NCBI GenBank assembly: GCA_028285595.1
Contig: JANQOW010000066.1
Coordinates: forward strand, 350-64,349
Origin: Hyphomicrobiales bacterium
GTDB lineage: Bacteria; Pseudomonadota; Alphaproteobacteria; Rhizobiales; CAJQND01
Reading direction: 5' to 3'
Length of the DNA stretch: 64,000 nt
Shown: positions 7,014-62,756 of the stretch, in pieces
How positions within the stretch are numbered: position 1 is the first letter of the stretch
How the letters are laid out: every line of letters begins with the position of its first letter
Position numbers and translations under genes: made by a program
Notes under the pieces: generated by a model
Told to the model about the DNA's origin: nothing
The model's database searches: none
What the model saw: the letters and a program-made list of their open reading frames with translations, nothing else

Positions 7014-7019
7014 ACGATC

Positions 7020-32404: not shown

Positions 32405-32426
32405 CATAGTGTCTTGTGATAAAGGA

Positions 32427-45545: not shown

Positions 45546-46520
45546 TCAGGCAGCCACCAGATCCATGGCCTGAGCAGCCTCTTCCAGCACCGAGACCGTT
45601 GCCCCGTCCCGGTGCATGTGCTGAGACAAGTAACGGCGCCAATGCCGTGCGCCAGGCTCTCCCTGGAACAGGCCGAGCAGATGTCGGGCGATGTGATGCA
45701 GCCGGGCACCGGCTGCCACCTGGGCATCCACATAAGGCAAGAAACGCTCCAGTGCTTCGCGTCGCGCGGTGACTTGGGGCGTGTCTCCAAACACGCGTCT
45801 GTCTACATCCGCGAGAAGCCACGGGGTCTGGTAGGCCGCCCGTCCGACCATCACCCCGTCCACGACATCAAGCTGATCAAGCGTCTCATCAAGGCTCACA
45901 ATCCCACCATTAATGGCAATCTGTAGATCAGGCCGGCGGGCCTTCAGCCGGTGGACACGGGCGTAGTTGAGCGGCGGTATATCCCGGTTCTCCTTGGGGC
46001 TCAGCCCCTGGAGCCAAGCCTTGCGGGCATGCACGATAAAGGTGGAGCAGCCCGCCTCAGACACGGTGTCGATAAAGGTGTTGAAGTCTTCTTCTTCGTC
46101 CTGATCGTCGATCCCGATCCGGCATTTCACCGTGACCGGGACGGTTACTTTTGACAGCATCTCCGACACGCAGGCCCCCACCAGCTCCGGCTCTGCCATG
46201 AGGCAGGCCCCGAAGCGGCCCGATTGAACCCGGTCCGACGGACAGCCGACGTTTAGGTTGATCTCATCATATCCCCAGTCTGCCCCGATCTTTGCCGCCT
46301 CGGCACACTCTCCAGGCTCCGAACCGCCGATCTGAAGGGCAACGGGATGTTCGGCGGGCGCGAAGTCCAACAACCTGTCTCTGGGGCCGTGCAGGAGCGC
46401 GCCTGTTGTCACCATCTCGGTGTAGAGCAAGGCACGGCGCGTCAAGACGCGGTGGAACGCCCGGCAGTGCCGGTCGGTCCAATCCATCATGGGCGCGATG
46501 GAAAAGGCATGGGCCTGCAT
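45546..46520 (-). CDS. dusA: tRNA-dihydrouridine(20/20a) synthase
   Basis: FSIAPMMDWTDRHCR, EINLNVGCPS and VTVKCRIG motifs plus the DusA-type C-terminal helical domain. ATG 46520 is preferred. Confidence 0.85.
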   Translation of the reverse strand: MQAHAFSIAPMMDWTDRHCRAFHRVLTRRALLYTEMVTTGALLHGPRDRLLDFAPAEHPVALQIGGSEPGECAEAAKIGADWGYDEINLNVGCPSDRVQSGRFGACLMAEPELVGACVSEMLSKVTVPVTVKCRIGIDDQDEEEDFNTFIDTVSEAGCSTFIVHARKAWLQGLSPKENRDIPPLNYARVHRLKARRPDLQIAINGGIVSLDETLDQLDVVDGVMVGRAAYQTPWLLADVDRRVFGDTPQVTARREALERFLPYVDAQVAAGARLHHIARHLLGLFQGEPGARHWRRYLSQHMHRDGATVSVLEEAAQAMDLVAA

Positions 46521-46788
46521 GTGAGAGCAACGAGATTTTACCATACCGTCAAAGGCCTGAATTGAGCGCACGCAGTCTTTTGATCTTGCTATGCCGCGAT
46601 CGAATATCGTGGTTCGGAACGTCGTTGCTCGCGCTTATAGCAGATATTGTTTTGAAGCTGGCAAACTGTGATTATTCTTCAAGGCGGCCGGTGGCGCCGT
46701 AAGCATTCTGCCGTTCCAGCCAAAAATCCGCTATGCTATGCCACCATGAACGGCAGACTAGACCGACGGAATGAGAGCACTTTTATAG

Positions 46789-48939
46789 ATGATCCATCGC
46801 AATTCGTGCCGAATATCGGAAGTTGTATGTCCACATAGCTTCCGTAGCGCCGTTAAATTGAGCTGCACCAAACTGGTAATTTGGTGTGTGCTGGTGTTGC
46901 TTGCAGGCGCACAAACCCCGGCCAGCGCGGCGGCTAAAGACGAGGAACCGTCGTTAAATCTGTTCCGGATGCCAGAATACGCAGTTCAACAGGCTAACTT
47001 GGCGCGCCGTTTGGGGCCACTTTTTCGACAGGGAAAGTTTGCCGAAGCTGAGAAAGCTCTCCGGAACATTCTGGCAAGTCATCCGTATTGGCCGGTTCAT
47101 CATTACATGCTTGGCGCGGCGCTGGCCCATCAAGGAAAGATTGAAGGGGCGTTTGAAAGTCTCGAATCCGCGAAAACTCTTGGTTTCTCGAATGCTGCGA
47201 TGTTGCAACGAGATAGTAGTTTTCTCTTGCTGAGAGGCCATCAAAGGTTCCGAGAGCTGTTGGCAGAGATTGCAGATCCAAACAGACCAGTGCCCGATGC
47301 CTTTCAAAAGAACAAGATCCCAGGGAAAGTCTCGGGGGGACGTGCCCTTGTTGAGAGTTCGAACACTGTCTGGGACCCACGCAACAATCTGCTTCTATCG
47401 GCTTTTCAGTTTCCTAACTCCGAGAAACCTGAAACTGTCTACACCGGCTCCAATCCAGAGCTGAAACTCCTGAACCAATTGTACAAGGAGGGAAAGTCAG
47501 CTGGGAATTACGGGGATCTGTACGACAATCGAGACAATGACCATTCCTCGCTCTCGCAGAAAACGTTTCAGCAGCTTACACACGTTGAATATAGCAAGCC
47601 GGCGAAAGCCGTGCGGCGCCACTACGGCTTAAACTCGAACCAGATGTTTAACGCCATCACAATTGGAAACTCTTCCACTGCCGTAACCGGACAGTATTGG
47701 AGGAGCCAAGCAAGATTGATGCTATCGTCGCCAACTCTGGCCGCCCACGCCTATCGTCAGTATGCGAACAATCAACTTTACGTCTATCCAGAACACCAGG
47801 ATCACGACCCAGAGCGCGGAGATCTGTTCCCGGTGAACACGCCCTATTTGTTGATATCGCAAGGCTCGTCAGGTTCTGATCAACCTTTCTTGCAAGCGCT
47901 TGCTGCGATACTTGCAGCACTTCCGCCTGATGTGAAGCCATGGTTGAGACAGCGAAGGTTAGTTGCGCCAACTCTTCAATGGATATTCAGAAAAGGATTG
48001 AAAACCGTCCGGTCAACAGGTGATTACTTAAGCGCAAGGGCGCATCCCACGGTCTTCGATGCCAACGAAATAGATTTAGGTCGCATGATCGAATTTGCCA
48101 GCAATCTGCGCTCAGATGTGGTGCCGCCCAGTGTCCAGCTACGCGTTCAGTCGGAGAGCACACCAACTCCCGGGCTGAACTATTTTGGCCCTTCGAGACG
48201 AGACGAAGTCTTGTTCAATACCCCCAGCGCAATTGCGCGAATACACAGATCAACGACTCAGGAACGAGTGATGATCGTAAGCGCGGAAGCGACTCAAGAT
48301 CCAAATGGGAGGGCGCTCAAATATTCATGGAAACTGCTACGCGGTGACCCGGACAAGGTCTCAATCACGCCACTAGGGAACAGTGGGGCGAAAGCCGAAA
48401 TCCGTATCAAGTGGCACGCTCAAAATCTGGTGCCATTTCGCGGAGAGCTCAGAACACACAGAGTAGATATTGGCGTATTCGCTCACAATGGTGTCAATTA
48501 CTCGAGCCCCGCATTCGTCACCGTTTACAACGCGCCTAATCAGTTTCGCAGATACGACGATGAGGGCCGAGTTATGCAAATTACGTATGACGCCGCCCTG
48601 CTCTCAGACCGGTACGTGGACCCAACGTTGTTCGCCAGTCGAAATTGGCAAGATCACTACAGCTACACAGAACAAAACGAGTTGATCGGATGGCAGCGTA
48701 AGTCTGATGAAGGTACTCAGACGTTTACGCGCCATGGGGCGCGGGCCGTCGCATTTGACGGAGCCGGCAGACCGATTAGGGCTGAACTCATCACGTATCG
48801 CAGAACAAGCATCGCAAATGCAAAAGGGATTGTCCAAATGGTTCCGCAAAACCGATTTGTTCACTATCGTTATAGGGATGCGTCGGATCGCCTTGGAGTC
48901 GCAACCTTCTGTGGTCAACCCATTTGCAACCATCACTAA
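46789..48939 (+). CDS. large secreted hypothetical protein with N-terminal TPR-like repeat region
   Basis: 716 aa. Signal-like LVIWCVLVLLAGAQTPASA. TPR-like AEKALRNILASHPYWPVHHYMLGAALAHQGKIEGAFESL. The remainder is unrecognised. Start uncertain. Confidence 0.55.
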   Translation: MIHRNSCRISEVVCPHSFRSAVKLSCTKLVIWCVLVLLAGAQTPASAAAKDEEPSLNLFRMPEYAVQQANLARRLGPLFRQGKFAEAEKALRNILASHPYWPVHHYMLGAALAHQGKIEGAFESLESAKTLGFSNAAMLQRDSSFLLLRGHQRFRELLAEIADPNRPVPDAFQKNKIPGKVSGGRALVESSNTVWDPRNNLLLSAFQFPNSEKPETVYTGSNPELKLLNQLYKEGKSAGNYGDLYDNRDNDHSSLSQKTFQQLTHVEYSKPAKAVRRHYGLNSNQMFNAITIGNSSTAVTGQYWRSQARLMLSSPTLAAHAYRQYANNQLYVYPEHQDHDPERGDLFPVNTPYLLISQGSSGSDQPFLQALAAILAALPPDVKPWLRQRRLVAPTLQWIFRKGLKTVRSTGDYLSARAHPTVFDANEIDLGRMIEFASNLRSDVVPPSVQLRVQSESTPTPGLNYFGPSRRDEVLFNTPSAIARIHRSTTQERVMIVSAEATQDPNGRALKYSWKLLRGDPDKVSITPLGNSGAKAEIRIKWHAQNLVPFRGELRTHRVDIGVFAHNGVNYSSPAFVTVYNAPNQFRRYDDEGRVMQITYDAALLSDRYVDPTLFASRNWQDHYSYTEQNELIGWQRKSDEGTQTFTRHGARAVAFDGAGRPIRAELITYRRTSIANAKGIVQMVPQNRFVHYRYRDASDRLGVATFCGQPICNHH

Positions 48940-49373
48940 ACCTGCTGATCGCTCCATTCAGACGTCATGCCTGCGGGCGCGCAATTGCGAACCGGAGATG
49001 TATAGGCACCGATCCGCTCACACATGAACCCAAAGAGAGCAACACAAGCTCGGCCTAAACTATATGACAAAGCATTCGCGCTTAGTCGCGGCTTCGGCGA
49101 TCGCAAACATTTTAATTGGACAGATGTTTGATAACATTGGCAAAGTCTACTAAGACTCGCCAAGAAACAATTGGGGAGCATTCACCTCTAAAGTGGGAGC
49201 CAGGTTCGAAATTTATTGCCACAGGTAGGACTGCCCGCTCGTGCATCAATGAATCATAGGCCCCGCCGAAGACTTCTTTGCCCAAAATCTCGCAACGGTC
49301 AGAATGCTGCGGACCAAGTTTAATCCGTGTACAACCATTGCCGAGATGCTGAAAACAGATGATTGGAAGTAAG

Positions 49374-50330
49374 ATGAGTAAACTTAGCTTCAGCAGGAAG
49401 CGTGTCCTCGTGACTGGAGGTGCCGGATTTCTCGGCTCGCACCTGACAGACCGCCTGCTGAATGACGGGCACGAAGTGCTCTGCCTCGACAACCTCTTTA
49501 CAGGCAGCAAGCGCAATGTGGAGCATCTGCACCAACACCCGCGTTTTGAGTTCATGCGGCACGATGTGTGCTTTCCGCTCTACGTTGAGGTGGACGAGAT
49601 CTACAACTTAGCCTGCCCGGCTTCCCCAGTTCATTATCAGCACGACCCGGTTCAAACGACCAAGACATCCGTGCATGGCGCCATAAACATGCTGGGTTTG
49701 GCGAAACGTCTTAAGTGCAAGATATTCCAAGCGTCCACGAGTGAAGTGTACGGAGACCCAACCGTTCACCCGCAACCAGAACGTTATTGGGGAAATGTCA
49801 ATCCGTTGGGACCGCGTGCCTGCTACGACGAAGGCAAGCGTTGTGCAGAAACCTTATTCTTTGACTACCATCGTCAGCACAAGCTGGAGATCAAGATCGC
49901 CAGAATTTTCAATACTTATGGCCCTCGCATGCATCCAAACGATGGCCGCGTTGTGTCCAATTTCATTATGCAAGCGTTGATGGGGGAGCCCCTCACCATA
50001 TTCGGCGATGGCACTCAAACGCGATCATTCTGTTATGTCGACGATCTGGTCGATGGCTTTGTCAGGCTCATGGATACGGATGAATCCGTTACGGGCCCAA
50101 TCAACCTCGGCAATCCGACTGAATTCACAATGATTGAGTTGGCAGACAATATTCTGTCCCTGACCGGTTCAAAGTCAGAACTGGTGCACATGCCTCTACC
50201 TCAAGATGACCCCAAGCAACGTCGCCCAGACATTTCGCTGGCAAACAGCGAGCTGAGCTGGACCCCGAAAGTTGCATTAAAAGAGGGACTTAAGGAAACC
50301 ATCGCCTATTTCAGAACAGTAATTGGTTAA
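49374..50330 (+). CDS. UDP-glucuronate decarboxylase (UDP-xylose synthase), SDR family
   Basis: [21 protein letters not shown] and the CYDEGKR (YxxxK) motif. N-terminal region [21 protein letters not shown] is typical of UXS. Confidence 0.85.
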
Positions 50331-50367
50331 GTCTGCGATTATGTGGATGGGACCATTTCGGCTGGCC

Positions 50368-51510
50368 TCATCTAACGAAAGGATAGCGCTGTAGCAGTTT
50401 GAGCCGCTCGTCATTGAGGACCTCTGCTTTGCGCTCCAAACCTCTCGCGATGAGTTCTAGGAACTTGGGATCAGGGAACCAATGGGCATGATGGACCACC
50501 TGGGGTAAGAAGCCTCTGGCCACCTTATGTTGACCTTTCGCCCCAGCATCAATGAAGTCCAAACCATCCGCCAGCGCGATGTCAATTGCCTGATAGTACG
50601 CTGACTCATAGTGCGCGAATTTCACATAGCTGGAATACCCCCAATGCTGAGCGTATAGTCCGCGCCTGCTTCGAAAATAGAATGTTCCGCATATATACTC
50701 ACCTTCGCGCTTTCCGAGCACCAGCAGCACATTTTCGGGCATTTTCTCAGCCAATTTCACGAAGTACTCTTTGTTTACAAAAGCTTTTTCACCGTTTCTT
50801 TGGTGGGTCGATTGATAGAATCCCAGCATTCTATCCGCAACATCACTGGAAAGCTCGTTCCCGGTCAGCCGCTCCCACGTTAAACCGGTTGTTCCCAGTC
50901 GACGCCGTTCGCTGCTCACCATTTGCCGTGGCTTTCGCTTCAGGTTTGCGAAGTAGTCATCTAGGTCTTGATAGCCATTGTTGCGCCAAATGAACTGTGT
51001 TCCCTGCCCTGGAACCAGGCCCATTTTCGCTGCCAGCTGTTGCTCTTCTGCCCGCATGTACGTGATGTGCAGCGATGAAAGATTGAGCTGATCGCTGATT
51101 GCGATTAATTCTCGAACGAGCCTTTCACGAAGCTTCTCTTCGGAACAACCAGCTCGAACGAGCAGCCGTGAGCCGGGAAACGGACAAAAGGGCACTTCCA
51201 CTTGCAGCTTCGGATAGTAGGGACCGCCGGCTCTCTCATAAGCCAGGCTCCAGCCCATATCTGCGCCCAGTTCCGCATGGGAGTGCTCTTTGACATAAGC
51301 CGGCGCCGCCGCAACCACTTCACCTTTGTTGTCTCGCAACACCAGATGATTGGGCTTGAAGCCGGTCGCCGGAGATACGCAGTCACTGCTCTCAAGGGCG
51401 TGAAGATGTGCGTGGCAGACAAAGGGATCATCGCCGGCGCAGGCATCCCAATCTTCGGCTTCGATGTCCGATATGCTGTCGAGAGTTAGTGCTGTGTAGT
51501 TCTGTTTCAT
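50368..51510 (-). CDS. FemAB_like (DUF482-type) GNAT-fold acyl/aminoacyl-transferase
   Basis: WDACAGDDPFVCHAHLHALESS...TGFKPNHLVL...APAYVKEHSHAELG...YYPKLQVEVPFCPFPG matches the FemAB_like family pattern from memory. Confidence 0.7.
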   Translation of the reverse strand: MKQNYTALTLDSISDIEAEDWDACAGDDPFVCHAHLHALESSDCVSPATGFKPNHLVLRDNKGEVVAAAPAYVKEHSHAELGADMGWSLAYERAGGPYYPKLQVEVPFCPFPGSRLLVRAGCSEEKLRERLVRELIAISDQLNLSSLHITYMRAEEQQLAAKMGLVPGQGTQFIWRNNGYQDLDDYFANLKRKPRQMVSSERRRLGTTGLTWERLTGNELSSDVADRMLGFYQSTHQRNGEKAFVNKEYFVKLAEKMPENVLLVLGKREGEYICGTFYFRSRRGLYAQHWGYSSYVKFAHYESAYYQAIDIALADGLDFIDAGAKGQHKVARGFLPQVVHHAHWFPDPKFLELIARGLERKAEVLNDERLKLLQRYPFVR

Positions 51511-51930
51511 GTTTGTTTTCGACAAGCGGCCTCGTCTCAAAGGCCTACCTTTTCAGTTTCGATATTCCTGCATCTCCCAACAGTTGAATTCGGTTGCTCT
51601 CAGACCTCCTAGTCCATGCCAACTGTGTGTCGCAAGGGCGGAAGCTGGCCACACGCCCCAACAAAACGCTCCAGCCGGTCAAGTTGGAGGTCTTCGGCCC
51701 GGTTCTTGCTTAGCCAGCGAGTCAATTAAATAAACTGACATAGAGAGTATCTTTGTAATGCGAGATCAATGGTCCATCCAATAGGTAGAAAGCTTGCCCG
51801 TTTTTCAGTACAACTTTTGCAACAAGTGGTTAACTTTAACAATTTGTATGCGATAGACTTTCCAACGGTTAAACGGCTTGGTCTTAGTGACCGATAAACT
51901 CGCAGGAAAACATCAACCGGGGCTGGAGCT

Positions 51931-53748
51931 GTGGAGTTGAACACGATAACGAACGAAAACTCGAGCATGATAAGGGACATCGACAAGGTGCTCGCACGGG
52001 TTGACGCGGACCGGCCCCTGATGATGTCACCGGATGGCGTTCTCACGTACGGAAATCTGAAGAAACGAATAAGCAAGCTGCGTGGTTTGTTCGGAGCATT
52101 GGGCCTTACGCCCGGCAACCGTGTGGTTATCGCCTCAGACAACGATGAGACCGTTGTTACTGTCTTCTTTGCACTTCTGACATCGGGTTTGACCGCAATC
52201 ATTAGTGATGGACGAACAACTCCGCACGAATTGTCCACTCTCATCGCCTCGGCAGATCCAGCCGCTGTTTTTGTCGATGAGGATCTGTTGGCCGAATTCT
52301 CCAAGCACCACCAGTTCCCTGCGTCTAAGACAGTGTGCCTCAATGCCCGGGAAAACCAAGGGGCAAGAGCAACTCACGCGGGCAAGGTATACCCGGACGT
52401 CCTGAACGAGGTGCCCGAGGTTGCCCAGTCTCCTCACGTCGCGCCGGACACCCTCGCCCTCATCGTGTTCACATCGGGCACAACATCCAATCCAAAAGGA
52501 GTTTGCCTTAGCCACGCTAACCTCCAGGCACAGCTTGAAACGTTTCGGGAAATCTATGGTTTTGACGCAAAGTCCAGGCTCCTGAACATATTGCCCCTTC
52601 ATCACGTCGACGGGCTGATCCGTGGACCATTGGCTGCGCTTTGGTTCAACGCTCAATTGTTCCGCCCCATGCGGTTTGGCGTGACGGAAACGGGAAATCT
52701 GCTGGACGTCATACTTGCCGAACAGATTACGCATTTCATCACTGTTCCGGCACTGTTAACGCTCGTAGACAGGTTGGGATCCGCCGCGGCAGGCGCCTTC
52801 AGCGGACCAGATTTTCGCTACATAATCTCTAGTGCGGACGCGCTGGACACCAATCTATGGACGCGCCTCGAAGCTCGCCTGGGGACCAAGATCGTCAATG
52901 CATACGGCTTGAGCGAGGTGGTTTGCGACGCTCTCTTCTGTGGACCGAATGAAGCTTCGCGCAAGGTCGGCACGCTGGGCAAGCCTGTTGGCTGCAAAGC
53001 ACAAATCGTTGATCTCGATGGTGCCGAGGCTGGTGTAGGCGTAACGGGCGAGCTCATATTGAGTGGCCCCATGGTGATGCAAGGATACTTCCGTTCTCAG
53101 GCGGACACAGATCGGGTGTTGAGAAACGGCTGGTTCTATACCGGGGATTTGGTGAGCTGTGATGGTGAAGGCTTCTATCACTTCAAAGGCCGCAAGAAAT
53201 CGGTCATTGTCTCGCGCGGCGTGACCATCTATCCCGAAAGCATAACCAATGCTGTCTTGAAAATGCCTGGCATCGCAGAGGCGGTGAGTTTCGGCGTTGA
53301 CGACGAATTATGGGGGCAGAGCGTCGTCGCTTGTGTCGTAACGGCAGCCGGCGCAAATATCAGCAAGATCGATGTCATCGACCACTGCCGCACACATCTG
53401 TCGCCGGAGAAGATCCCGTCCGACGTCTATTTTCTTGATGAGCTTCCCAGAGGCCCCTCCGGGAAAATTAAGCTCGACTTGATCCGGCATACGGCAAAAG
53501 CTGCTGAACCCTCGTCGGATCCATCGCAAGATGTGTTTCAAATCGCGGCTGACTGTTTCAACGTCCCACGGGAGAGCCTGTCTCTGGAATCGAGCCCCTA
53601 TAACACAGAAGGCTGGGACTCCCCGGCTCATCTCGACTTCATTATTCGATTGGAAACACATTTTGGTGTCAGTCTGTCGCCTGAAGACATCATCGAATTG
53701 GGAACATTAGCGGATGCCGAAACCAAAATTCAGCACCTCTTGTCTTAA
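51931..53748 (+). CDS. adenylate-forming (acyl-CoA-ligase-like) enzyme fused to a C-terminal acyl carrier protein domain
   Basis: FTSGTTSNPKGV, YGLSE, YTGDL and PRGPSGKIK motifs. The C-terminal about 80 aa carry GWDSPAHLDFIIRLE, a candidate phosphopantetheine Ser. GTG 51931 or ATG 51967 start. Confidence 0.8.
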   Translation: MELNTITNENSSMIRDIDKVLARVDADRPLMMSPDGVLTYGNLKKRISKLRGLFGALGLTPGNRVVIASDNDETVVTVFFALLTSGLTAIISDGRTTPHELSTLIASADPAAVFVDEDLLAEFSKHHQFPASKTVCLNARENQGARATHAGKVYPDVLNEVPEVAQSPHVAPDTLALIVFTSGTTSNPKGVCLSHANLQAQLETFREIYGFDAKSRLLNILPLHHVDGLIRGPLAALWFNAQLFRPMRFGVTETGNLLDVILAEQITHFITVPALLTLVDRLGSAAAGAFSGPDFRYIISSADALDTNLWTRLEARLGTKIVNAYGLSEVVCDALFCGPNEASRKVGTLGKPVGCKAQIVDLDGAEAGVGVTGELILSGPMVMQGYFRSQADTDRVLRNGWFYTGDLVSCDGEGFYHFKGRKKSVIVSRGVTIYPESITNAVLKMPGIAEAVSFGVDDELWGQSVVACVVTAAGANISKIDVIDHCRTHLSPEKIPSDVYFLDELPRGPSGKIKLDLIRHTAKAAEPSSDPSQDVFQIAADCFNVPRESLSLESSPYNTEGWDSPAHLDFIIRLETHFGVSLSPEDIIELGTLADAETKIQHLLS

Positions 53749-53938
53749 TGCTCTCGTCGCGAGTGTGATTGGACATGCTGATTGACCGCGCGCTTCCGGT
53801 GAACCCTGGCTGCAGATTATGTGTCTTCACGGCTACCTCCAGGCAAGGGCCAGTGCGCCGGGTCCATCCGCAGCGCCAGGCTCCCTTCAGACAGTATTCC
53901 AGCGAACAAATGGTCCACCAAAATCATGAGAGACAGCT

Positions 53939-54751
53939 ATGAGCAGTGTTCCCGATCATAGTTCCTCTCAATCCACCCTGCTTTGCATAAGAAAGGGCGA
54001 GCCGAACGTTTGCGTCATTTTTGCACCGGATATTGGAGGCGGTGTCATTTATTCACGCAAGATCCTCTCTCAAATCGACGATAGCATAAGTGCGCATGGC
54101 TTCAGGCTCACACCAGATTTGGTGCAATCGCTTCCGCAACTTTCGATACAGGACATTGCCAAGCGATTTGCGACCGATCTAAGGGCTTCCGCGCTTCCTG
54201 AGCCTTATCACCTTGTTGGACACTCGTTTGCCGGGCTGTTGGCGTACGAGATTGCCTGCCACCTGCATGAGCTTGGTTCAGAGGTTGGTGTGGTGGCCCT
54301 GTTGGATACCGCAGCGCCCACACAATTCTATACAGGATATTGGTTTCGTTTCGTGGCCAGCGCGCGCAGATTGAGAGACAAACTTCATAGATTTGTTCTG
54401 ACAAGTCGCTTGTTCCAGTCGCCCGAAAAGGCTGCGACGATCAAGTTATACCCAGGTTTCATTCTTCTGGATTTGTCGAAACACACGGCCTCTCATGTCT
54501 TCATTATCGAGAATTTGTATGATTCCCTGGTGCGGTACAAACCAAGCCGCTCAGATTTCAGAATCTCAATATTTGCATCACAAACGCTATGGCGGAGAAG
54601 TTTGTATCCAAAATACTTAGGATGGGAAGTGTTCTCCACGAACAAAGAACTGATTGGACTCAATTTCGGCCATAACGATTTCGTTGGCAGTGATATTGCC
54701 GCTCAGCAGGTTGCTGCCCATCTACAATCGCTGGTAAAGCAAAGGTGCTGA
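53939..54751 (+). CDS. stand-alone thioesterase-like alpha/beta hydrolase
   Basis: GHSFAGLLAYEIA nucleophile elbow followed by LLDTAAP. Resembles the TE domain of the 915-aa NRPS-like protein (GHSFGGLLAYEMA ... LIDTPTP). Confidence 0.7.
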   Translation: MSSVPDHSSSQSTLLCIRKGEPNVCVIFAPDIGGGVIYSRKILSQIDDSISAHGFRLTPDLVQSLPQLSIQDIAKRFATDLRASALPEPYHLVGHSFAGLLAYEIACHLHELGSEVGVVALLDTAAPTQFYTGYWFRFVASARRLRDKLHRFVLTSRLFQSPEKAATIKLYPGFILLDLSKHTASHVFIIENLYDSLVRYKPSRSDFRISIFASQTLWRRSLYPKYLGWEVFSTNKELIGLNFGHNDFVGSDIAAQQVAAHLQSLVKQRC

Positions 54752-55067
54752 GAGCTAACCAACAAACCGCACGCGTTGCCACGATTGCATCCTGGTCCAC
54801 AACCGTGCGCGAAGAGGATGAGAGTACGTCAAGCACCAATCTTAAACCTATCAACAATTGATATGGAGAACCGTAGTCAATATGGCATGCCGGAAATGTC
54901 TTTAAGAATGCGTGGCCTTTCGGCTTCCGTTAAGTGTCAGATTTACAATAGCACAGCTACTCAACCATCGTTCTGGAGCGTCGGCCAGCTTGAGGCGGCA
55001 CGCAATCAGATAACTCCAACAGACCTCCAAACATAAACAGCTCTGCAGAGATGCGCTGCACAACACG

Positions 55068-56390
55068 TCATAGGTCGCCCGTCTCGAAAACTGAATTTGA
55101 GAGGGCACGCGCCAACTGCCGGCCTTCTCGGATCGCATAGTTTGTACCACGGTCTTCGGGATAAATCTGCGCCATCGAACAAATGTATAGACCCGGCGCC
55201 GGCGCCTCTATCGCGGGAATAAGCCGAGAATAGTATCTTTCAACGATCGGCTGCGCCCATCTCGCCTTCCAGACGTGCCAATTGCGGATCCAGTCGCGGG
55301 AAAATTCTGGAAACATGCACCGGATATGAGGAATTGAAAACTCTAGTATTTCCTCATCGGACATACCATAGAGCGTCTCCGTGTGGGGTAGATACCGTGA
55401 CAGGTAGACAACGTGATCACCACCATAGTCACTGGGATTCTGGAAGTTGGTGTGTTCGATCACGCCCACATATGGAAAGCTCGTGTCGTTCACGTTAAGC
55501 CAGTAGGTCGAGGAAAGCGACCTGTCCAGCCTGAGCACCAGACAGACATTCGCCAAATATTCGATGCGCCTTAACTCTGCGATATACTCAGAGCTCGACC
55601 AGCCCTCAATCATATCGGCTATGACGGGTAGAGCCGGAGTGGCGATCACAACATCGCTTTCGCGCTGACCCCATGCCCCGCTCGCAAGCCACCGACCTGT
55701 GGCCGAATCCCGAGTGAGCCGTTTTACAGTTCTATCCGTGCAAACCACGCCGCCATGGCCTTCCACCGCGCTGGCAACCGCTTCTGCAAGACGGGCAAAG
55801 CTGCCCTTGAAATATGCCAGTCGCTCCTCTCCCCCCCTTCCTCGGGAGCCTCCTCGCAGCTTGATCTTGTTCCAGAACCAAACCGCGGAAACTGACTCCG
55901 CGTGGGGCCCAAATTTGCCCTTCAAGAGCGGCTCCCACATCACATCATACACCCGCTGACCACCAAGTTCGCGAAGCCAGTCAGCAGCGGTCACACCTTC
56001 CAGGGATCGCCAGTCAGTCACACGGCGGGCTTTGAGCGTGAGAAGACCGAGGCGAATTCGATCAAGGAGCGTCAGAGGTTTGAATTTCAACAGATCGAGC
56101 GGCGTGGACAGCTTCAGAATGCTGTTGGCATAGTAGACTCCGGTATTCGTAGGGCTGGTCACCACCTGATCCTCAAGACCGAGTTCTTTGATCAAACCCA
56201 TGACTTCGAGATCGTTGGTGAACCAGTGGTGATAAAAACGATCCAGACGTTCTCCGTCGGTTTCAAAAGCGCCTGCGAGACCGCCCACAGAGCTATCAGC
56301 CTCAAGTACGGTTACATTGTGCCCTCGACGCACCAAGTCATAAGCCGCAGAAAGACCGCTAAATCCTGCACCAATGATGGTGATCTCCAT
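55068..56390 (-). CDS. NAD(P)/FAD-dependent oxidoreductase (amine-oxidase / phytoene-desaturase superfamily)
   Basis: MEITIIGAGFSGLSAAYDLVRRGHNVTVLEADSSVGGLAG dinucleotide motif. 440 aa. Confidence 0.7.
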   Translation of the reverse strand: MEITIIGAGFSGLSAAYDLVRRGHNVTVLEADSSVGGLAGAFETDGERLDRFYHHWFTNDLEVMGLIKELGLEDQVVTSPTNTGVYYANSILKLSTPLDLLKFKPLTLLDRIRLGLLTLKARRVTDWRSLEGVTAADWLRELGGQRVYDVMWEPLLKGKFGPHAESVSAVWFWNKIKLRGGSRGRGGEERLAYFKGSFARLAEAVASAVEGHGGVVCTDRTVKRLTRDSATGRWLASGAWGQRESDVVIATPALPVIADMIEGWSSSEYIAELRRIEYLANVCLVLRLDRSLSSTYWLNVNDTSFPYVGVIEHTNFQNPSDYGGDHVVYLSRYLPHTETLYGMSDEEILEFSIPHIRCMFPEFSRDWIRNWHVWKARWAQPIVERYYSRLIPAIEAPAPGLYICSMAQIYPEDRGTNYAIREGRQLARALSNSVFETGDL

Positions 56391-56410
56391 TGCGCGGCGC
56401 CCCCGGAGCA

Positions 56411-57424
56411 TTACTGAGTGGACGCTGCCACTTTTGTTGCACTGCCGCCATTACGATAGACGATCCAAATCAGAATACTTATTCCGCCTGCCAATGTGGC
56501 CGTAATCCACAAGATCATGTGTACCAGTACAGCGAATGCAAAAGCAGCGGCGGGCGGATTGCCGGCAAGTTCGGCCATGCGGATTGCAAAGAAATCGAAT
56601 GTTCCCAAATAGCCGGGCGCAGAGGGCAGCAACGTCGCGAGCGTCGCAACGGGAAAGGCGAGAACTGCACCAGCCAACTCGGTAATCGCTGGCAGAGCGC
56701 GGCCCGCGGCGTAGAACACGGCTCCTTCCAACATCCAGGCCAAAGCTGACCAGGTCATCAGCTTTAGCATCTGTTTGCCTTTCGCCTGATGCTGAAGAGT
56801 TTCGAGCATCTGGTCAAAAACCCGACCGAGCCGGGCCCCATACCGCGCACTAATGTGGTTGGTAATGATGACCATCACATGGGCCGGGCCAGCAAAGAGT
56901 CTTGGATAAAGCAACAGCACCAATATCGCGAGCGCACCTATTGTAAGCAAATGACCACCTACCCCGAGAATGTTCCATGCCCCGTGTAAATCCTGAGCCA
57001 ATAGCCTCAAAACTAGAGCGGCGCAGACCAGCAGACTCAAAAGGTCAAGCATGCGTTCAACAAACAACGTTGCGATCACCCTAGAAGTACCAACACCAAG
57101 CCACTTGCTGAAAGCGAAGGCGCGCAAAGCATCACCTGCGCGGAACGGGAGGACATTGTTTGTCGCAACTGAAGCCAAAAGCGGTACGGCAGATCTCCAG
57201 AAGCCAACTTTGGAACCACTAGACAACAGCATAACACGCCAACGTTGAACCCTGCACGCATATGCGAAAACAAACAACACGACGGCAATGCTAACCCACC
57301 ACGAAGACGCATCCGCCAAGGACAACAGAAACGCATCCCAATCGAGATTACGCGCCGCTAAGTATGCAAAGCCCAGCGAAAAGCCGAGCCCCAAAATCAG
57401 TTTCAGGAACTGGCGTGGTGTCAT
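56411..57424 (-). CDS. flippase-like polytopic membrane protein (LPG_synthase_TM / UPF0104 type)
   Basis: ATG 57424 lies 4 nt after the GT2 stop. Multiple TM helices. The RVQRWRVML motif after TM2 is typical of UPF0104. Confidence 0.6.
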   Translation of the reverse strand: MTPRQFLKLILGLGFSLGFAYLAARNLDWDAFLLSLADASSWWVSIAVVLFVFAYACRVQRWRVMLLSSGSKVGFWRSAVPLLASVATNNVLPFRAGDALRAFAFSKWLGVGTSRVIATLFVERMLDLLSLLVCAALVLRLLAQDLHGAWNILGVGGHLLTIGALAILVLLLYPRLFAGPAHVMVIITNHISARYGARLGRVFDQMLETLQHQAKGKQMLKLMTWSALAWMLEGAVFYAAGRALPAITELAGAVLAFPVATLATLLPSAPGYLGTFDFFAIRMAELAGNPPAAAFAFAVLVHMILWITATLAGGISILIWIVYRNGGSATKVAASTQ

Positions 57425-57428
57425 TAGC

Positions 57429-58445
57429 TCATGCACCGCGCTGCCGACGTAAAATTGTAGGCTCTTGGGTTTCTGCCGGCGTTGGGAGACAGTCCGCTGA
57501 GGAGAAGCCATAGCTGGCGCGCTCGTCCACAACATACAGCGGTCGAGATTTTGTCTCCGTGTAAACGCGAGCCAGATACTCCCCAATCACGCCGAGGGCA
57601 ATCAATTGAATTCCGCCAATGAACAGGACCGCGATCATTAATGCTGTCCAACCTTCCACCCAGGCAGCGGTGAAGATTCGCATGTAGAATGCGTACACAA
57701 TTCCAAAACAAGCCAGAAACGACGAAATAATGCCCAGCATCATCGCCAATCGCAGGGGTTTTGAGGAAAAGGAAAGTATGCCGTCTAGCGCAAAAGCTAT
57801 CATCTTCCTGAGTGGATACTTTGATATGCCAGCCAGGCGTTCGGCTCTCTCATACGGCAATTCTATCTGTCGAAATCCGACCCACGTGACCATGCCGCGG
57901 ATAAAGCGATGGCGTTCTGGCATGGACTTCAACACATCTACCACACCACGGTCCATTAAGCGGAAGTCTCCGGTATCTAGGGGGATCGGGATCTCCGATA
58001 AACGGTTCAATAATCGGTAGAAACAGCGCGCCGTTGCAAGCTTGAAAGCGCTCTCGCCGGAGCGGGAGATCCGAGTTCCATACACCACATCGTAGCCTTC
58101 CTCCCAGCGCGAGATCATTTGCGGAATGACTTCTGGGGGATCCTGCAGATCGGCGTCAATGAGCACAACGGCATCTCCGCGTGCAGCGTCAATGCCAGCC
58201 GTTACTGCGATCTGATGACCAAAATTGCGAGCCAGCGCCACAACGTGAACCGTTCTGTTATCTTCGGATATTCGCCTTAGAATTTCCCTTGTCTTATCAG
58301 AACTGCCATCATCGACAAAGATCAATTCGAACTGGTACTTCTTCAGGCCGGCGGCCATCTTGCCCAGTCTCTCTATTGTGTTCGCCACTACCTCCTCTTC
58401 ATTGTAGCAGGGAACAACCACAGAGATAATCTTTTGACCAGTCAT
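57429..58445 (-). CDS. family-2 glycosyltransferase with C-terminal TM helices (polyprenyl-phosphate sugar synthase, ArnC/GtrB/DPM1-like)
   Basis: VVVPCYNEE and DADLQDPP (DxD) motifs, plus two C-terminal TM helices. Confidence 0.8.
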   Translation of the reverse strand: MTGQKIISVVVPCYNEEEVVANTIERLGKMAAGLKKYQFELIFVDDGSSDKTREILRRISEDNRTVHVVALARNFGHQIAVTAGIDAARGDAVVLIDADLQDPPEVIPQMISRWEEGYDVVYGTRISRSGESAFKLATARCFYRLLNRLSEIPIPLDTGDFRLMDRGVVDVLKSMPERHRFIRGMVTWVGFRQIELPYERAERLAGISKYPLRKMIAFALDGILSFSSKPLRLAMMLGIISSFLACFGIVYAFYMRIFTAAWVEGWTALMIAVLFIGGIQLIALGVIGEYLARVYTETKSRPLYVVDERASYGFSSADCLPTPAETQEPTILRRQRGA

Positions 58446-58678
58446 GCAATCTATACCTAAACCAAGTTAGTGTTAATATGCAGTATCGAAACGATTTTTT
58501 GAATACCCCACTGGCTAAATTATAAATTTTGACGTAGATAAGCCTCTATAAAACCTGAACTTTAATCGGTGAATAGGGAGAGTATCTTGTGTCACCCAGT
58601 GAATTCTGTGGAGGCTCAGTTGCGTACGTGCCTTTCTGAGATAGAGGCAATCGTTGATCCCGTTCAAGTAAGGCTGCG

Positions 58679-60220
58679 ATGATGCTGCGCGTAATCTCGG
58701 GGCTTTCGATTGCCGGGCTCGCGTTTCTCTTACTTCTCATGCCTGCTCTATACAATGGGTCCCCAATTTATTGGTACGATTCCATGGCGTATCTTCACGG
58801 CGGCAGTTCCGCGCTAAACACAACCATTGGTTTTGAGACCCGATTTAGAAACATGGAGCGGGCAACGCCTCCCAAGTTGGAGATAGCTGGATCGCAACAC
58901 AAGGACGCAAAACGCGAGCCTTCTTCCTCAGCGGCGACCGAGTCCCATGCGCCGGAGACGGAGTACCGGATATCTATGGCTCGGTCCCCTTACTACTCGG
59001 CGATCTTGGTGTTCTTGTCTGGAACTTACGGACCGTTCGCACCCGTCGCCGGGAAAGCACTCCTTATTGTAGCGATCGGATTCTTGTTGCTCCGAGCTGT
59101 GTTCAAGAGCCGGATTACGACGCCAGCATTGTATCTCCTGGCAGCATTATCCGTTAGCACGGCAGGCGTGTTTTGCGCCACGCTCTTGCCGGATATACTT
59201 GCGCCAGTAGGAATAATATCAGTTGCGGTTTTGTTTTGCTTTTACGACAACCTAAGCAACCTGGACAGAGGATTATGGTTCGGTATCCTTGTGTTCTCAA
59301 TTGTGTCGCATACTTCACACATCGCGATCACCTTCATTCTCATTCCAATCGGCGTTGTTTTGGCGGTGCTGCGCCAAAACGGTCGCGCACGTGCTCCATT
59401 GCTGATCTGCCTGCTTGCAGTCGCTGTTGGGTTTTTGAGCCTTCAGACGTTCTCTCGAGCAGTCGAGAGCATTTACGGGTATAAGCCGCGACCATTTCCA
59501 ATGATTGCCGCAAGCGTTATCGTTGATGGGCCTGGGCTGAACTACTTAATGTCAACTTGCCCTGAAAACGGTTACGTCTACTGCGACTACATTGATACCA
59601 AAGCGCAGAATATCGACGAGTTTCTCTGGTCGACGGATAAAGCCACGGGCGTGTACGTCTTAGCTGACCGGGAGGCCCGCACCCAAATGTCAGATCAGCA
59701 AGTTCAGTTTCTTATCGACGTACTAACCTTTGATTTTGCGGCGCAGTTCCGAGCCTCCTTCGAGCGCTTTCTCGAGCAACTTCAAAAAAACTCCCTCGCC
59801 CATTTGACGTATACCAAAAGCCTTACGAAGGAGCTGACACGTGTTCTACCAAACCCCGAGCGTCAGTTGCTGGTTGAAAGTGCCGCCTACTTCGACCGTT
59901 TTCCGTTCAGGGGATTTAGTATTCTGACACAGGTATTCTCAGTTCTGGCACTTATCGGCACGCTGATCGTACTCGCCAGAGCGAGAAGCCTTGGCACCTC
60001 AAATGGCTCATCCATCCTCGTCCCGCCATTGGCTGTAATGATTTCATTCGTAGTTATCGTGCTTTGCGGCATTGTTGCCAATGCTGGCATTACAGGCGTC
60101 GTGTCTAATCCACAGGGACGGTACGGGGCGCGTGTCATATGGCTTCTGCTCGTAATGTTTGCCGTGGTATTGGCCTGGTACCACCGCAACTCGGAGCGCG
60201 AAGCAAAAACGATCGACTAA
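58679..60220 (+). CDS. large polytopic membrane protein (513 aa, 10 or more TM), hypothetical; possible GT-C-type glycosyltransferase or polymerase
   Basis: Hydrophobic helices throughout, with a soluble loop of about 130 aa (residues about 290-420). Divergent from the GT2 operon. No motif recognised. Confidence 0.55.
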   Translation: MMLRVISGLSIAGLAFLLLLMPALYNGSPIYWYDSMAYLHGGSSALNTTIGFETRFRNMERATPPKLEIAGSQHKDAKREPSSSAATESHAPETEYRISMARSPYYSAILVFLSGTYGPFAPVAGKALLIVAIGFLLLRAVFKSRITTPALYLLAALSVSTAGVFCATLLPDILAPVGIISVAVLFCFYDNLSNLDRGLWFGILVFSIVSHTSHIAITFILIPIGVVLAVLRQNGRARAPLLICLLAVAVGFLSLQTFSRAVESIYGYKPRPFPMIAASVIVDGPGLNYLMSTCPENGYVYCDYIDTKAQNIDEFLWSTDKATGVYVLADREARTQMSDQQVQFLIDVLTFDFAAQFRASFERFLEQLQKNSLAHLTYTKSLTKELTRVLPNPERQLLVESAAYFDRFPFRGFSILTQVFSVLALIGTLIVLARARSLGTSNGSSILVPPLAVMISFVVIVLCGIVANAGITGVVSNPQGRYGARVIWLLLVMFAVVLAWYHRNSEREAKTID

Positions 60221-60699
60221 GCAGAACCTCGTACGCGTTACGCGAAAACAGACACAAGATTCGCGCGCGCCAATTCGATTTGGCCCTGACCCGGCCTCGT
60301 GATTGCCGTGTCTGTCTTTCCACTCACATCTGTTGGCGACCGCGTAAAGCACGAAAGTTGGTTGACATAATGCACCCAATCTCGCGTCACGTGATCTAGC
60401 ACATCCCACCACATGCCAGCCGTGTTTCTTCAAGCATTATGCCTGCAGAACGAACAATCATCGAGATCCCAATGCGAGACTGCCACTCGATTTGAACGCA
60501 ACCTACACGCAGAGCTGTGAAATTTTCGGATTTAGTTAAGCTATGGTAAACGCCGATCAATGCTATTTCGCTTTTGTGCATATGGTTACTATGCTGACTA
60601 CTTGCGCTGTAAACTTTAATCAAAAAAAATTCCACTTAGAGCTTCAAGAGTTGGCATAAACTGATATAGGTATCAGGTAATTAGTATTTCGGTGCAAGT

Positions 60700-62304
60700 A
60701 TGGCTCAGATTTCGGAAGTGTCCGATGAAACACCGAGGGAAAGCGGTTCGTGGGTAGCGCCGGGCTTGTTTTGGCTCGCCGTCGCCTCTTTGGGCGCCGC
60801 AGTGTTCTTCGCAGATGGGCTTGACGCGCTTTTTGTCGCTTGGTCCCTGCCAGAGTATTCACACGGACCGCTGATTCCCGTTCTCTCAGCACTCCTTTTT
60901 CTTCGCCAGCTCAAATCATTTCCGCCCGAGCCGGGACCAATACGCAATCGATGGATCGGAGTGACAATCATTGTTGTGTCGCTTGCCATGGCAGTTCTTG
61001 GCAAGCTGTCGAATATTTCCGACGTGGTGGCCTACGCAACCATTGTCTGGGTCGGCGGTATCCTGCTGGTCGGATTTGGGTGGTCCACCGGCAAGCACTT
61101 CTGGCCGCCCGTGCTGCACCTCGTCTACATGTTGCCGCTGCCAGGCGTGATCTACTACAAGATGACAACGTGGTTGCAGTTCGTTTCGTCAGAATTGGGT
61201 GTCTACTTCCTCCGGCTGCTATCCATTCCGGTTTTTCTCGACGGAAACATCATCGATTTGGGGATTACTAAGCTACACGTTGCCGAAGCGTGCTCTGGAT
61301 TGCGGTACCTGTTTCCCATTTTATCATTCAGCTATGTCTTCGCGGTGCTTTACAAGGGCCCAACTTGGCACAAGGCGGTTCTGTTGGTTTCAGCGGCACC
61401 CATCACGGTGTTCATGAATTCGGTCCGGATTGCAGTGGCCGGTGTAATTGTGGAGTACTGGGGCCTGGATTGGCTGGAGGGCTTCACACACTTTTTCGAA
61501 GGCTGGGTGATCTTTATCGCCTGCATACTGATACTCTTCGCATTGGCTCGGGTCATGCTCTTGTTCAATAAAGAGAAGATGAGCCTCCCGGAAGCGTTAG
61601 ATCTCGACACGAGCGGACTGTGGCCCCAGGCGAAACGACTTCAGTTCACCCAAGCTTCGAGGGCAATGGTTGCAAGTGCGCTTCTAATGTCAGCGGCCGC
61701 GCTGGGATGGCAGACCATTCCTGACCGCGAGGTGAGTACGGTGACCCGAGAAAGCTTCGTCTTGTTCCCCCGCCAGTTAGGTGACTGGCGTCAGCAGGGA
61801 TCGCCGCGAGCGCTGTCACAAGCCGTTGCCCGGGTGTTGGCAGCCGACGATTATCACTCGGTCAACTTCCATAAGCCAGGTGCCGCAGCCACCGTTGAGT
61901 TCTTCTCCGCATGGTATAGCGATCAAAGCAAGGGTGGCGTGCATTCGCCCGAAATCTGTTTACCTGGAGGGGGATGGGAGATCGCTTGGCTTGAGCGCAC
62001 GGATCTGACCGAAACATTGGGCTGGAAAACACCCTTTAAAATCAATCGAGCGATTATCCAAAAGGGCACCAACCGGATGATGGTCTATTACTGGTTTGAC
62101 CAGAAAGGCCGGAACGTTGCCTGGGACTTAGCCGCCAAATTCTATCTGCTTGTTGATGGGGTGCGGACGGGACGAACTGATGGCGGGCTTGTGCGTCTGA
62201 CGACTAAGATCATGCCTGGTGAAACTGATGCCGCCGCTGAGGCGCGTTTAATCAACTTGATGCGCGAGGCGCTTAAATCGATTGATCGGTTTATACCGTC
62301 CTGA
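60700..62304 (+). CDS. xrtD: exosortase fused to an EpsI-family C-terminal domain, XrtD (VPLPA-CTERM-specific) type
   Basis: Exosortase motifs AEACSGLRYL (Cys), NSVRIAVAG (Arg) and FTHFFEGW (His) in a polytopic N-terminal half. C-terminal about 200-aa periplasmic EpsI-like domain. A VPLPA-CTERM substrate gene lies at 32427-33197. Confidence 0.8.
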   Translation: MAQISEVSDETPRESGSWVAPGLFWLAVASLGAAVFFADGLDALFVAWSLPEYSHGPLIPVLSALLFLRQLKSFPPEPGPIRNRWIGVTIIVVSLAMAVLGKLSNISDVVAYATIVWVGGILLVGFGWSTGKHFWPPVLHLVYMLPLPGVIYYKMTTWLQFVSSELGVYFLRLLSIPVFLDGNIIDLGITKLHVAEACSGLRYLFPILSFSYVFAVLYKGPTWHKAVLLVSAAPITVFMNSVRIAVAGVIVEYWGLDWLEGFTHFFEGWVIFIACILILFALARVMLLFNKEKMSLPEALDLDTSGLWPQAKRLQFTQASRAMVASALLMSAAALGWQTIPDREVSTVTRESFVLFPRQLGDWRQQGSPRALSQAVARVLAADDYHSVNFHKPGAAATVEFFSAWYSDQSKGGVHSPEICLPGGGWEIAWLERTDLTETLGWKTPFKINRAIIQKGTNRMMVYYWFDQKGRNVAWDLAAKFYLLVDGVRTGRTDGGLVRLTTKIMPGETDAAAEARLINLMREALKSIDRFIPS

Positions 62305-62756
62305 TCATCGTCCCGCACAAATGCGCTGAGACTGTCTTCCAGCGCTCTGATAGAAATCCGTCAAACCCAGCGACAAAAAACCCAGACGCAAAGTTTTCAG
62401 AGCAACTGGATTTAGGTGCATCTGATAGCTGACGTCACCGCGTTTCCATTCCCTAACCAAACTCGGAATTACGCCCGGGCCATGTTTCACTTCACTTGAA
62501 GCTTTGTATCTAGGTCAATGCAGGCATTGATCTCTGACCCGAGCAGCCAACGATACATCATCCGACTGCGCGGGGTCTTGGGCACGCACCACCGGCGACT
62601 GCGATTACATTGTCGCGACTAACCGTAAAGCAGGGCCTCGCAAAAGGAGTCCGAATGGCAGGGGCATGGTGCTGCCAACAATCCACTTCGGACGCAATAA
62701 GGAGGCCGCCACCGTCCGTGCGTGTAGCGGCGCCAAACAGAGCGGCGCCTATTCAC

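Follow-up and report, generated by a model that had tools for sequence, protein, structure and literature searches.

In a 64,000-nucleotide stretch of DNA from a Hyphomicrobiales bacterium (assembly GCA_028285595.1, contig JANQOW010000066.1, positions 350 to 64,349; hereafter the window), three neighbouring genes were found to represent a conserved, uncharacterised unit with an unusual predicted mixture of tRNA-type and carrier-type chemistry. They encode a Fem-like protein of the FemAB_like family (PF04339, COG3146), an adenylation enzyme to which a carrier domain is fused (hereafter the A-carrier protein) and a stand-alone thioesterase (TE). All the domains assigned to the three genes in a first-pass annotation were found (PF04339; AMP-binding, AMP-binding_C and PP-binding; PF00975). 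We tentatively propose that the genes constitute an autonomous, horizontally mobile cassette, in which the adenylation (A) domain would load an acid onto the carrier, the Fem-like protein would aminoacylate it from aminoacyl-tRNA, and the TE would release the product. The cassette occurs independently of the exosortase XrtD, whose gene lies beside it in the window, and is not an exosortase accessory.

Conservation of the cassette across genomes

Relatives of the A-carrier protein were studied at 64 genome loci. The TE gene is located directly upstream of the A-carrier gene at 26 of these loci, and 21 of the 26 have the gene order FemAB_like, TE, A-carrier on one strand. The other five loci lack a Fem-like gene, two of them being cut by contig ends; 21 of the 24 untruncated TE/A-carrier loci carry a Fem-like gene just upstream, on the same strand. 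Genomes in which the cassette has no Fem-like gene include Aliiroseovarius YM-037 and Paracoccus lichenicola. The same order was found in three further metagenome contigs, two with housekeeping surroundings (L068, L071) and one in a polysaccharide locus (L070). Natural fusions join the TE and the A-carrier protein in both orders: a TE-A-carrier fusion of 878 aa (L004), and A-carrier-TE fusions in L042 (846 aa) and in five representatives of 837-878 aa. Because of this synteny, in 21 genome loci and three metagenome contigs, and of the fusions, the three genes are read as a carrier-dependent activation and transfer module working together, and the earlier description of a carrier-protein-dependent activation module is borne out.

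The cassette hosts include Sneathiella, Palleronia, Paracoccus, Solirhodobacter, Burkholderiales, Gemmatimonadota and others; Sneathiella chungangensis KCTC 32476, Paracoccus endophyticus SYSUP0003 and Solirhodobacter olei Pet-1 are cultured hosts. In 16 of the 26 cassettes a gene for a gamma-glutamyltransferase (GGT)-like protein (PF01019) stands directly ahead of the Fem-like gene (L066:6288-8012, L067:6334-8016 and 14 more), and the four genes overlap or lie end to end in Sneathiella and Palleronia. The GGT-like proteins are probably cytoplasmic, since the N-termini inspected start straight at the fold of the mature protein, with no evident signal peptide. No GGT-like gene is present in the window. 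Genes next to other cassettes include those for Thr synthase and DsbD, ParA and ClpA, and FadAB. Genes of an ApbA-like reductase and of an extra ANL ligase were observed upstream of the cassette in Sneathiella and Aliiroseovarius, and none in the window.

The cassette of L071 (5928-16980) shares a ClpS / ClpA / Peptidase_S11-SPOR neighbourhood with a stand-alone COG3146 gene of Hyphomicrobium (L154:6001-11285). The shared setting suggests that a housekeeping Fem-like gene was already in place in L071 when genes for the TE and the A-carrier protein joined it on the downstream side.

The adenylation-carrier protein and its two clades

The A domain contains the core motifs TSGTTSNPKG, HHVDGLIRGP, NAYGLSEVVCDA, GELILSG, YTGDL, GRKKS and PSGK, the last with the A10 lysine (Lys500), which is invariant in both A-carrier clades described below. 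The C-terminal domain matches PP-binding only marginally (21.3 bits, cut-off 20.8), alongside weak matches to acyl-carrier-protein models of NCBIfam. In an alignment of 18 members, Trp550 and Ser552 of the carrier motif are invariant and Asp551 nearly so; in a larger alignment (48 sequences from both clades) Trp-Asp-Ser is invariant in 41 of the 41 sequences assigned to a clade. Because the residues of the GWDS motif are conserved across the family, we regard the predicted carrier domain as real despite its marginal score; the C-terminal carrier with a GWDS serine, claimed at first from the motif, thus stands, with Ser552 invariant in both alignments.

Several features bear on the substrate. 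The nearest solved relatives of the A domain are oxalyl-CoA synthetase, FadD5, FadD13 and malonyl-CoA synthetase (CoA, coenzyme A). The amino-acid adenylation model TIGR01733 gives the domain 167 bits, below its cut-off of 317, and no DltA model is among the best 25 NCBIfam matches of the A-carrier protein. At the position of the amine-binding Asp of amino-acid A domains (motif A4) there is an invariant His213. In the clade that includes the window protein, Arg219, Asp291, Cys320 and Asp321 are also invariant; in the other clade these positions hold Gln, Gly/Ala/Ser, a variable residue and Gly/Ser, respectively. From these residues the substrate is probably neither a canonical alpha-amino acid nor a plain fatty acid, and motif-level mapping suggests a small polar, possibly zwitterionic, acid.

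In a neighbour-joining tree the A-carrier family falls cleanly into a Fem/TE clade, which includes the window protein, and a clade partnered by a membrane-bound O-acyltransferase (MBOAT). The two kinds of partners never co-occur (26 and 28 loci, respectively). A-carrier proteins of the sister clade are the more distant relatives (28-40% identity). At all 28 sister-clade loci (L015, L022, L027-L034, L043-L057 and others) the A-carrier gene is followed by a gene of an unannotated protein, about 280-300 aa long, and by one of an MBOAT protein (PF03062, 86 bits); the unannotated protein has a hydrophobic N-terminus in the representative inspected (c5 of L043). Often there is also a gene of a hexapeptide transferase, of an ApbA-like reductase or of a second, large (950-aa) ANL protein. 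The hosts are Proteobacteria and Bacteroidota, Planctomycetota and Acidobacteriota metagenome-assembled genomes. No MBOAT gene was found in the window or at any of the 26 Fem/TE-clade loci. The carrier-bound acyl group of the sister clade is evidently a donor handed to the MBOAT protein. A Dlt-like membrane acyltransferase in one clade and a Fem-like/TE pair in the other are coupled to one loading module, and the family thereby combines the same loading step with two transfer chemistries.

The Fem-like protein

The start of the Fem-like gene was taken as called on a second (Logan) assembly of the same DNA. The reading frame matches PF04339 over profile positions 1-367 of 369 (E 7e-111, 371.3 bits, gathering score 27). 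PF04339 is its sole match: the protein does not belong to the Pfam families FemAB (PF02388) or DUF2156, and a scan of NCBIfam gave no match even at E <= 10.

An AlphaFold2 model based on a 32-sequence alignment (mean pLDDT 93.1, pTM 0.91) contains two GNAT domains (approximately residues 1-176 and 211-344), each with the order beta1-alpha1-alpha2-beta2-4-alpha3-beta5-alpha4-beta6, followed by a long C-terminal helix. As the model has no transmembrane segments, the protein is presumably cytoplasmic. The two domains are connected by a basic helix, in which eight positions are occupied by Lys or Arg in 66-100% of the sequences of 32 family members. A positively charged helix between GNAT domains is described as a hallmark of aminoacyl-tRNA transferases and as required for the use of aminoacyl-tRNA (PMC8913301).

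In a Foldseek search of the PDB with the model, ranks 1-9 are aminoacyl-tRNA transferases, namely FemX with peptidyl-RNA and Sba18/Sbb17, described as 'aminoacyl-tRNA-dependent peptide synthase'. Rank 10 is an acetyl-CoA-binding tandem GNAT protein of the clavulanate pathway, and L-PGS, A-PGS and MprF appear from rank 11. The matches to the Fem, Sba18/Sbb17 and MprF types have E values of 1e-14 to 1e-9. At the sequence level, FemX was the sole PDB match of the family profile (E 0.008), and phmmer with the window protein found no match among PDB sequences. The CoA-pyrophosphate loop Q/RxxGxG/A after beta4 was not seen in either GNAT domain when the sequence was read by eye. The FemX-type fold matches, the conserved basic helix and the lack of a visible CoA-type loop favour aminoacyl-tRNA as the donor, a conclusion drawn from a model and its structural neighbours.

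PF04339 is a large family, with more than 4000 matches at E <= 1e-10 among the candidates scored. The window protein is closest (46-51% identity) to the cassette-linked copies P0125 and P0126, and about 40% identical to stand-alone members. COG3146 reaches plants (At2g23390), where it is listed among conserved plant-prokaryote 'unknowns', and the sole published guess at its function, a pterin-related one, was refuted (PMC3223725). AlpO of the argolaphos cluster, a weak COG3146 match, has been assumed to be a peptide aminoacyl-tRNA ligase.

The thioesterase

The predicted catalytic triad of the TE consists of Ser96 (GHSFAG, 54224), Asp123 (LLDTAAP, 54305) and His245 (GHNDF, 54671). Because all three positions are conserved in the cassette homologues, the enzyme is predicted to be active. 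Its NCBIfam matches are limited to the TE regions of Pks13 and EntF and two chance-level matches. The family is small and dedicated. An exhaustive phmmer search at E <= 1e-10 yielded only 170 representatives; those that match over the full length are A-carrier-TE fusions or else stand-alone proteins of 250-305 aa. In the same search TE domains of the nonribosomal peptide synthetase (NRPS) and polyketide synthase type matched only the N-terminal half of the window TE. A word-indexed search for homologues gave two matches only, since the family diverges fast.

The window encodes a further enzyme with A, carrier (T) and TE domains, a conventional 915-aa protein, whose reading frame extends over 7313-10060 and not over 7313-10024 as first given. 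Its TE domain had been considered a paralogue of the cassette TE. The likeness holds around the nucleophile elbow (27 identities in 68 positions, 40%, E 1e-11), in the N-terminal half only, and no similarity was found beyond it. The A domains of the two are 26% identical over 455 aa. With A domains so distant and a TE likeness of 68 residues, the idea of one fused and one split version of a single A / carrier / TE unit was dropped; judging from the sequences, the cassette and the 915-aa enzyme share superfamilies and are not two versions of one unit. The 915-aa enzyme is flanked by genes of a DUF6352 protein (5862-7013, plus strand), a 364-aa protein without a family match (10147-11241, minus strand) and a protein with a B12-binding domain (11257-11967, minus strand), and the region 5862-11967 may be a separate small biosynthetic unit.

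Independence from the exosortase

As the first-pass annotation stated, the XrtD gene lies about 6 kb from the cassette. That annotation had further attached the module to XrtD-type systems, a claim that it would have given up if the XrtD loci of other genomes never carried such a module. We compared 80 metagenome loci whose XrtD proteins are 59-83% identical to that of the window, about 30 of them with at least 7 kb of upstream sequence. None of the 80 contains an A-carrier or TE gene. Conversely, a tblastn search with XrtD (threshold 1e-5), which may miss distant exosortase types, found no match within 10 kb at any of the 64 A-carrier genome loci and thus at none of the 26 cassettes; a glycosyltransferase family 2 (GT2) operon or a Bac_transf gene within 10 kb was likewise found at none of the 26. 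A general attachment to XrtD-type systems is therefore not supported. Since the cassette occurs in many bacteria without an exosortase, its location beside XrtD in this genome looks like a lineage-specific placement.

The gene content around XrtD is itself highly variable. Among the 80 loci, other genes of the island that surrounds the cassette in the window are represented by a short-chain dehydrogenase/reductase (SDR) gene in five (one of them close, 77%), Bac_transf in six, GT2 in one and a tetratricopeptide repeat (TPR) protein in one. The genes of 55068-60220 are absent from all 80, save for one weak GT2 match (26% identity, L102). Between XrtD and Bac_transf, the locus with the closest XrtD (L074, 83%) retains about 70 codons left over from the N-terminal part of a FemAB_like gene (2143-2359; pieces of 61% and 33% identity, E 5e-7); the equivalent spacer of the window (62312-62773) contains no Fem-like remnant. 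In L070 the cassette, within its polysaccharide locus, adjoins a 77%-identical homologue of the window SDR gene.

Kinship of the three proteins with the accessory set of exosortase A (XrtA), also suggested at first, found no support in family models. The ligase scores 175.4 bits against TIGR03098 (ligase_PEP_1), far below the cut-off of 592.35 and at rank 19 among generic acyl-CoA ligase models; in scans to E <= 10 the Fem-like protein did not match TIGR03019 (pepcterm_femAB), nor did the TE match the PEP-system hydrolase models. To judge by these scores, the likeness to the XrtA module is one of parts lists and not of homology. The cassette should not carry an XrtD-accessory annotation.

Proposed mechanism and alternatives

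In the mechanism that we propose, the ANL domain would activate a small polar carboxylic acid and thioesterify it onto the phosphopantetheine arm of its own carrier at Ser552. The PF04339 protein would then take an amino acid from aminoacyl-tRNA, the donor that we infer, and join it to a nucleophile of the carrier-tethered substrate, standing in for an NRPS condensation domain by analogy with PacB. The product of the cassette would probably be an amide on the carrier-bound small acid, which the Ser-Asp-His thioesterase may free. The co-operonic GGT-like Ntn enzyme of most other genomes would process the product or a precursor. In this genome the cassette would have undergone a rearrangement that left the Fem-like gene divergent, and the polymer of its island may or may not make use of the product. 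If the mechanism is true, it gives COG3146 / PF04339 a first testable function and describes a compact three-gene route in which tRNA-dependent chemistry joins with carrier-dependent chemistry to give an aminoacylated small acid. A wider proposal appears rather unlikely as a whole: that PF04339/COG3146, from alphaproteobacteria to plant plastids, is a new class of aminoacyl-tRNA transferases, which here aminoacylates a carrier-tethered small acid as a condensation-free peptide/amide synthase whose product is fed into an XrtD-linked polysaccharide.

Several observations weigh against the proposed mechanism. The Foldseek TM-scores are moderate (about 0.5-0.72) at 12-15% sequence identity. Most PF04339 genes are stand-alone and located in housekeeping neighbourhoods. 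Three loci (L014, L026, L042) carry the TE and the A-carrier protein without a Fem-like gene within 6 kb, and in the window the Fem-like gene lies on the opposite strand. The mapping of the A-domain pocket is a motif alignment with GrsA and not a structure-based one. Literature searches on PF04339, DUF482, FemAB_like, COG3146 and IPR007434 gave no functional study, only the refuted pterin guess and the assumption about AlpO. The sister clade also counts here. It always adjoins an MBOAT gene (28 loci), the tethered acyl group is evidently the donor there, and by parsimony the same could hold for the Fem/TE clade. The acyl-S-carrier would then be the donor with which the Fem-like tandem GNAT protein N-acylates a separate amine (an amino acid, amino sugar, lipid or polyamine), and the TE would be a type-II editing or recycling enzyme. 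The kinship of the A domain with acyl-CoA synthetases rather than amino-acid A domains agrees with such an N-acylation, as does the acetyl-CoA-binding clavulanate-pathway protein at Foldseek rank 10. GNAT-fold enzymes that use acyl-ACP (acyl carrier protein) donors are known among N-acyl amino acid synthases, OlsB and LuxI. For the N-acyl amino acid synthases, a link to PEP-CTERM systems is given in the part of PMC4897644 that cites Craig 2011. We nevertheless consider N-acylation, the main alternative, to be the somewhat less likely explanation: an aminoacyl-tRNA donor is what the top fold matches and the conserved basic helix indicate, the canonical CoA/pantetheine pyrophosphate loop was not seen by eye in the sequence, and the strict conservation, translational coupling and occasional fusion of the TE fit obligatory release better than optional editing.

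Two further explanations deny the cassette its autonomy or its unity. The module could be an accessory of XrtD or of exopolysaccharide synthesis that decorates the exopolysaccharide or VPLPA-CTERM proteins, analogous to the XrtA-locus set. Within the low-GC island it is framed by the SDR gene and the GT2 operon, the L070 cassette is in a polysaccharide locus beside an SDR homologue, and L074 keeps an N-terminal Fem-like fragment right after XrtD. Such a role is nonetheless improbable, given that none of the XrtD loci contains an A-carrier or TE gene, that XrtD, the GT2 operon and Bac_transf are missing within 10 kb of all 26 cassettes, that other cassettes are found among housekeeping genes, and that no protein reaches the exosortase-A-associated NCBIfam models. 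Still less probable, indeed very unlikely, is that there is no three-gene unit here and that an ordinary stand-alone COG3146 gene stands by chance beside an A-carrier/TE pair, which makes or hydrolyses, for example, an acyl thioester. The divergent transcription of the Fem-like gene in the window, the abundance of stand-alone PF04339 genes, the three pairs without an adjacent Fem-like gene and the occurrence of the L071 cassette in the neighbourhood of the stand-alone Hyphomicrobium gene would all agree with chance. Against it stand the conserved gene order at 21 of the 24 untruncated loci, the closer similarity of the window Fem-like protein to cassette-linked than to stand-alone copies, and the fact that the three genes are still adjacent in the window despite the rearrangement. 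The proposed aminoacylation of a carrier-bound acid by an autonomous cassette is thus the reading that we retain, tentatively.

Genomic context of the window

The cassette sits within a polysaccharide/exosortase island that looks acquired. The island was delimited by composition, family scans and gene calls on a Logan contig, and the main features are listed in Table 1. GC content falls sharply from 0.60 to about 0.52 at approximately 46.57 kb, at the 5' end of dus. The genes left of this boundary are housekeeping ones: dus (45546-46571, minus strand), a GluQ-RS-like gene and an operon of circularly permuted ATP-grasp, Alpha-E and transglutaminase genes. The GC shift at 46400-46700 is either an island boundary or else an assembly break point. 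A chimeric assembly is unlikely, as the island-bearing Logan contig SRR20820731_7486 crosses the shift and continues for about 120 bp into dus, as far as window position 46452; this contig comes from the same sample and the same reads, and its continuity is not an independent proof.

As noted in the first pass, the cassette is bordered by a GT2 operon and by a sugar-nucleotide gene. The name UDP-xylose synthase, given then to the latter, could not be kept: no NCBIfam model reaches its cut-off, and the SDR protein has only Pfam matches to Epimerase and GDP_Man_Dehyd. The GT2 operon encodes an ArnC/PgfS-like GT2 protein, an LPG_synthase_TM flippase-like protein and a protein of the flavin adenine dinucleotide (FAD) amine-oxidase family (NF005560, 513 bits). 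The polytopic membrane protein next to it has no Pfam or NCBIfam match. In the divergent intergenic region between the Fem-like and A-carrier genes no Rfam match was found at E <= 1, and promoter-like and terminator-like signals did not exceed those of shuffled sequence. Riboswitches and other RNA leaders were found neither in the window, this intergenic region included, nor upstream of seven other cassettes.

Two observations concern the remainder of the window. A local GC dip (0.517) occurs at 32001-34000, inside a region otherwise at 0.60. A 411-aa protein with three Ribonuc_L-PSP (RidA-like) stretches is encoded at 14831-16066, next to genes (16077-21580) of a DAO-family FAD oxidoreductase, a glutamine-synthetase-like protein, an ANL ligase and a Rieske oxygenase.

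Table 1. Features of the window, in window coordinates.
Feature	Position	Strand	Remarks
A-T-TE enzyme, 915 aa	7313-10060	-	conventional; strong PP-binding and TE matches
Low-GC island	46572-64000		GC about 0.52 against 0.60
TPR protein	46789-48939		low-GC island
SDR sugar-nucleotide enzyme	49359-50330		low-GC island
FemAB_like gene, 380 aa	50368-51510	-	PF04339; open reading frame (ORF) 50368-51540; start ATG at 51510
Basic helix between GNAT domains	50899-50940	-	residues 191-204, KRKPRQMVSSERRR; helix 192-206 in the model
Divergent intergenic region, Fem-like / A-carrier genes	51511-51966		456 bp
A-carrier protein, 593 aa	51967-53748	+	ORF 51931-53748; called start ATG at 51967
Adenylation (ANL) domain, predicted	51967-53529	+	AMP-binding 210.6 bits; AMP-binding_C 57.8 bits
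Fused carrier (phosphopantetheine-binding) domain, predicted	53530-53748	+	attachment Ser552, codon 53620-53622, in GWDSPAH
Stand-alone thioesterase, 270 aa	53939-54751	+	PF00975, 47.4 bits (gathering score 26.4)
Amine oxidase / LPG_synthase_TM / GT2 operon	55068-58445	-	low-GC island
Polytopic membrane protein, 513 aa	58679-60220		strand opposite to GT2 operon
XrtD exosortase	60700-62304		TIGR04152, 649 bits (cut-off 400)
Bac_transf priming sugar transferase	62757-63998	-	low-GC island

Comparison with known systems

The loci of exosortase A (XrtA/EpsH) reportedly carry accessory genes that include a ligase, an ACP, hydrolases and a FemAB-related protein. The cassette has the same kinds of parts near an exosortase gene (an ANL ligase, a carrier, an alpha/beta hydrolase and a Fem-related GNAT protein), but its families are distinct and the association with the exosortase is not conserved.

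Carrier-dependent aminoacylation of envelope polymers is performed by the Dlt (DltA/DltC/DltB/DltD) and AlmEFG systems, where, as in the cassette, an adenylating enzyme loads a dedicated small carrier before a transferase acts. The resemblance to DltB and DltD, an A-carrier protein beside an MBOAT protein and a protein of about 280-300 aa, is confined to the sister clade. The clade of the window differs in having no MBOAT gene (0 of 26), a Fem-like partner without transmembrane segments, an additional TE, a fused carrier and an A domain that is not DltA-like.

In the butirosin side-chain pathway (BtrI/J/K/H/G) a carrier-tethered amino acid bears a transient gamma-glutamyl group. What both systems would have in common is a single operon whose enzymes act on a small carrier-bound acid, among them a dedicated acyltransferase and a gamma-glutamyl-processing enzyme, which in 16 of the 26 cassettes would be the GGT-like protein. 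Butirosin synthesis uses an ATP-grasp enzyme and a gamma-glutamyl cyclotransferase, whereas the cassettes have an ANL enzyme and a GGT/Ntn hydrolase, and the window lacks a GGT gene.

The best structural matches of the Fem-like protein, FemX/FemA, the MprF-type synthases and Sba18/Sbb17, have in common with it two GNAT domains and a basic linking helix. The Fem-like protein differs from them in its Pfam family (PF04339, not PF02388 or DUF2156) and is 12-15% identical to them. None of these enzymes is known to have its gene grouped with those of an A-carrier fusion and a TE, and they act on peptidoglycan precursors, lipids or an amino sugar.

A counterpart of the proposed logic is PacB of pacidamycin biosynthesis, reportedly a Fem-like transferase that depends on alanyl-tRNA and acts on a peptide tethered to a carrier. 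PacB, as far as tested, is not a PF04339 protein, pacidamycin synthesis has many more NRPS parts, and the A domain of the cassette differs in being acyl-CoA-ligase-like and fused to its carrier; tRNA dependence of the cassette's Fem-like protein is only predicted. The two systems nevertheless resemble each other in a Fem-type GNAT transferase working with a free-standing A / carrier / TE-type line, in the replacement of the condensation domain and in an acceptor tethered as a thioester.

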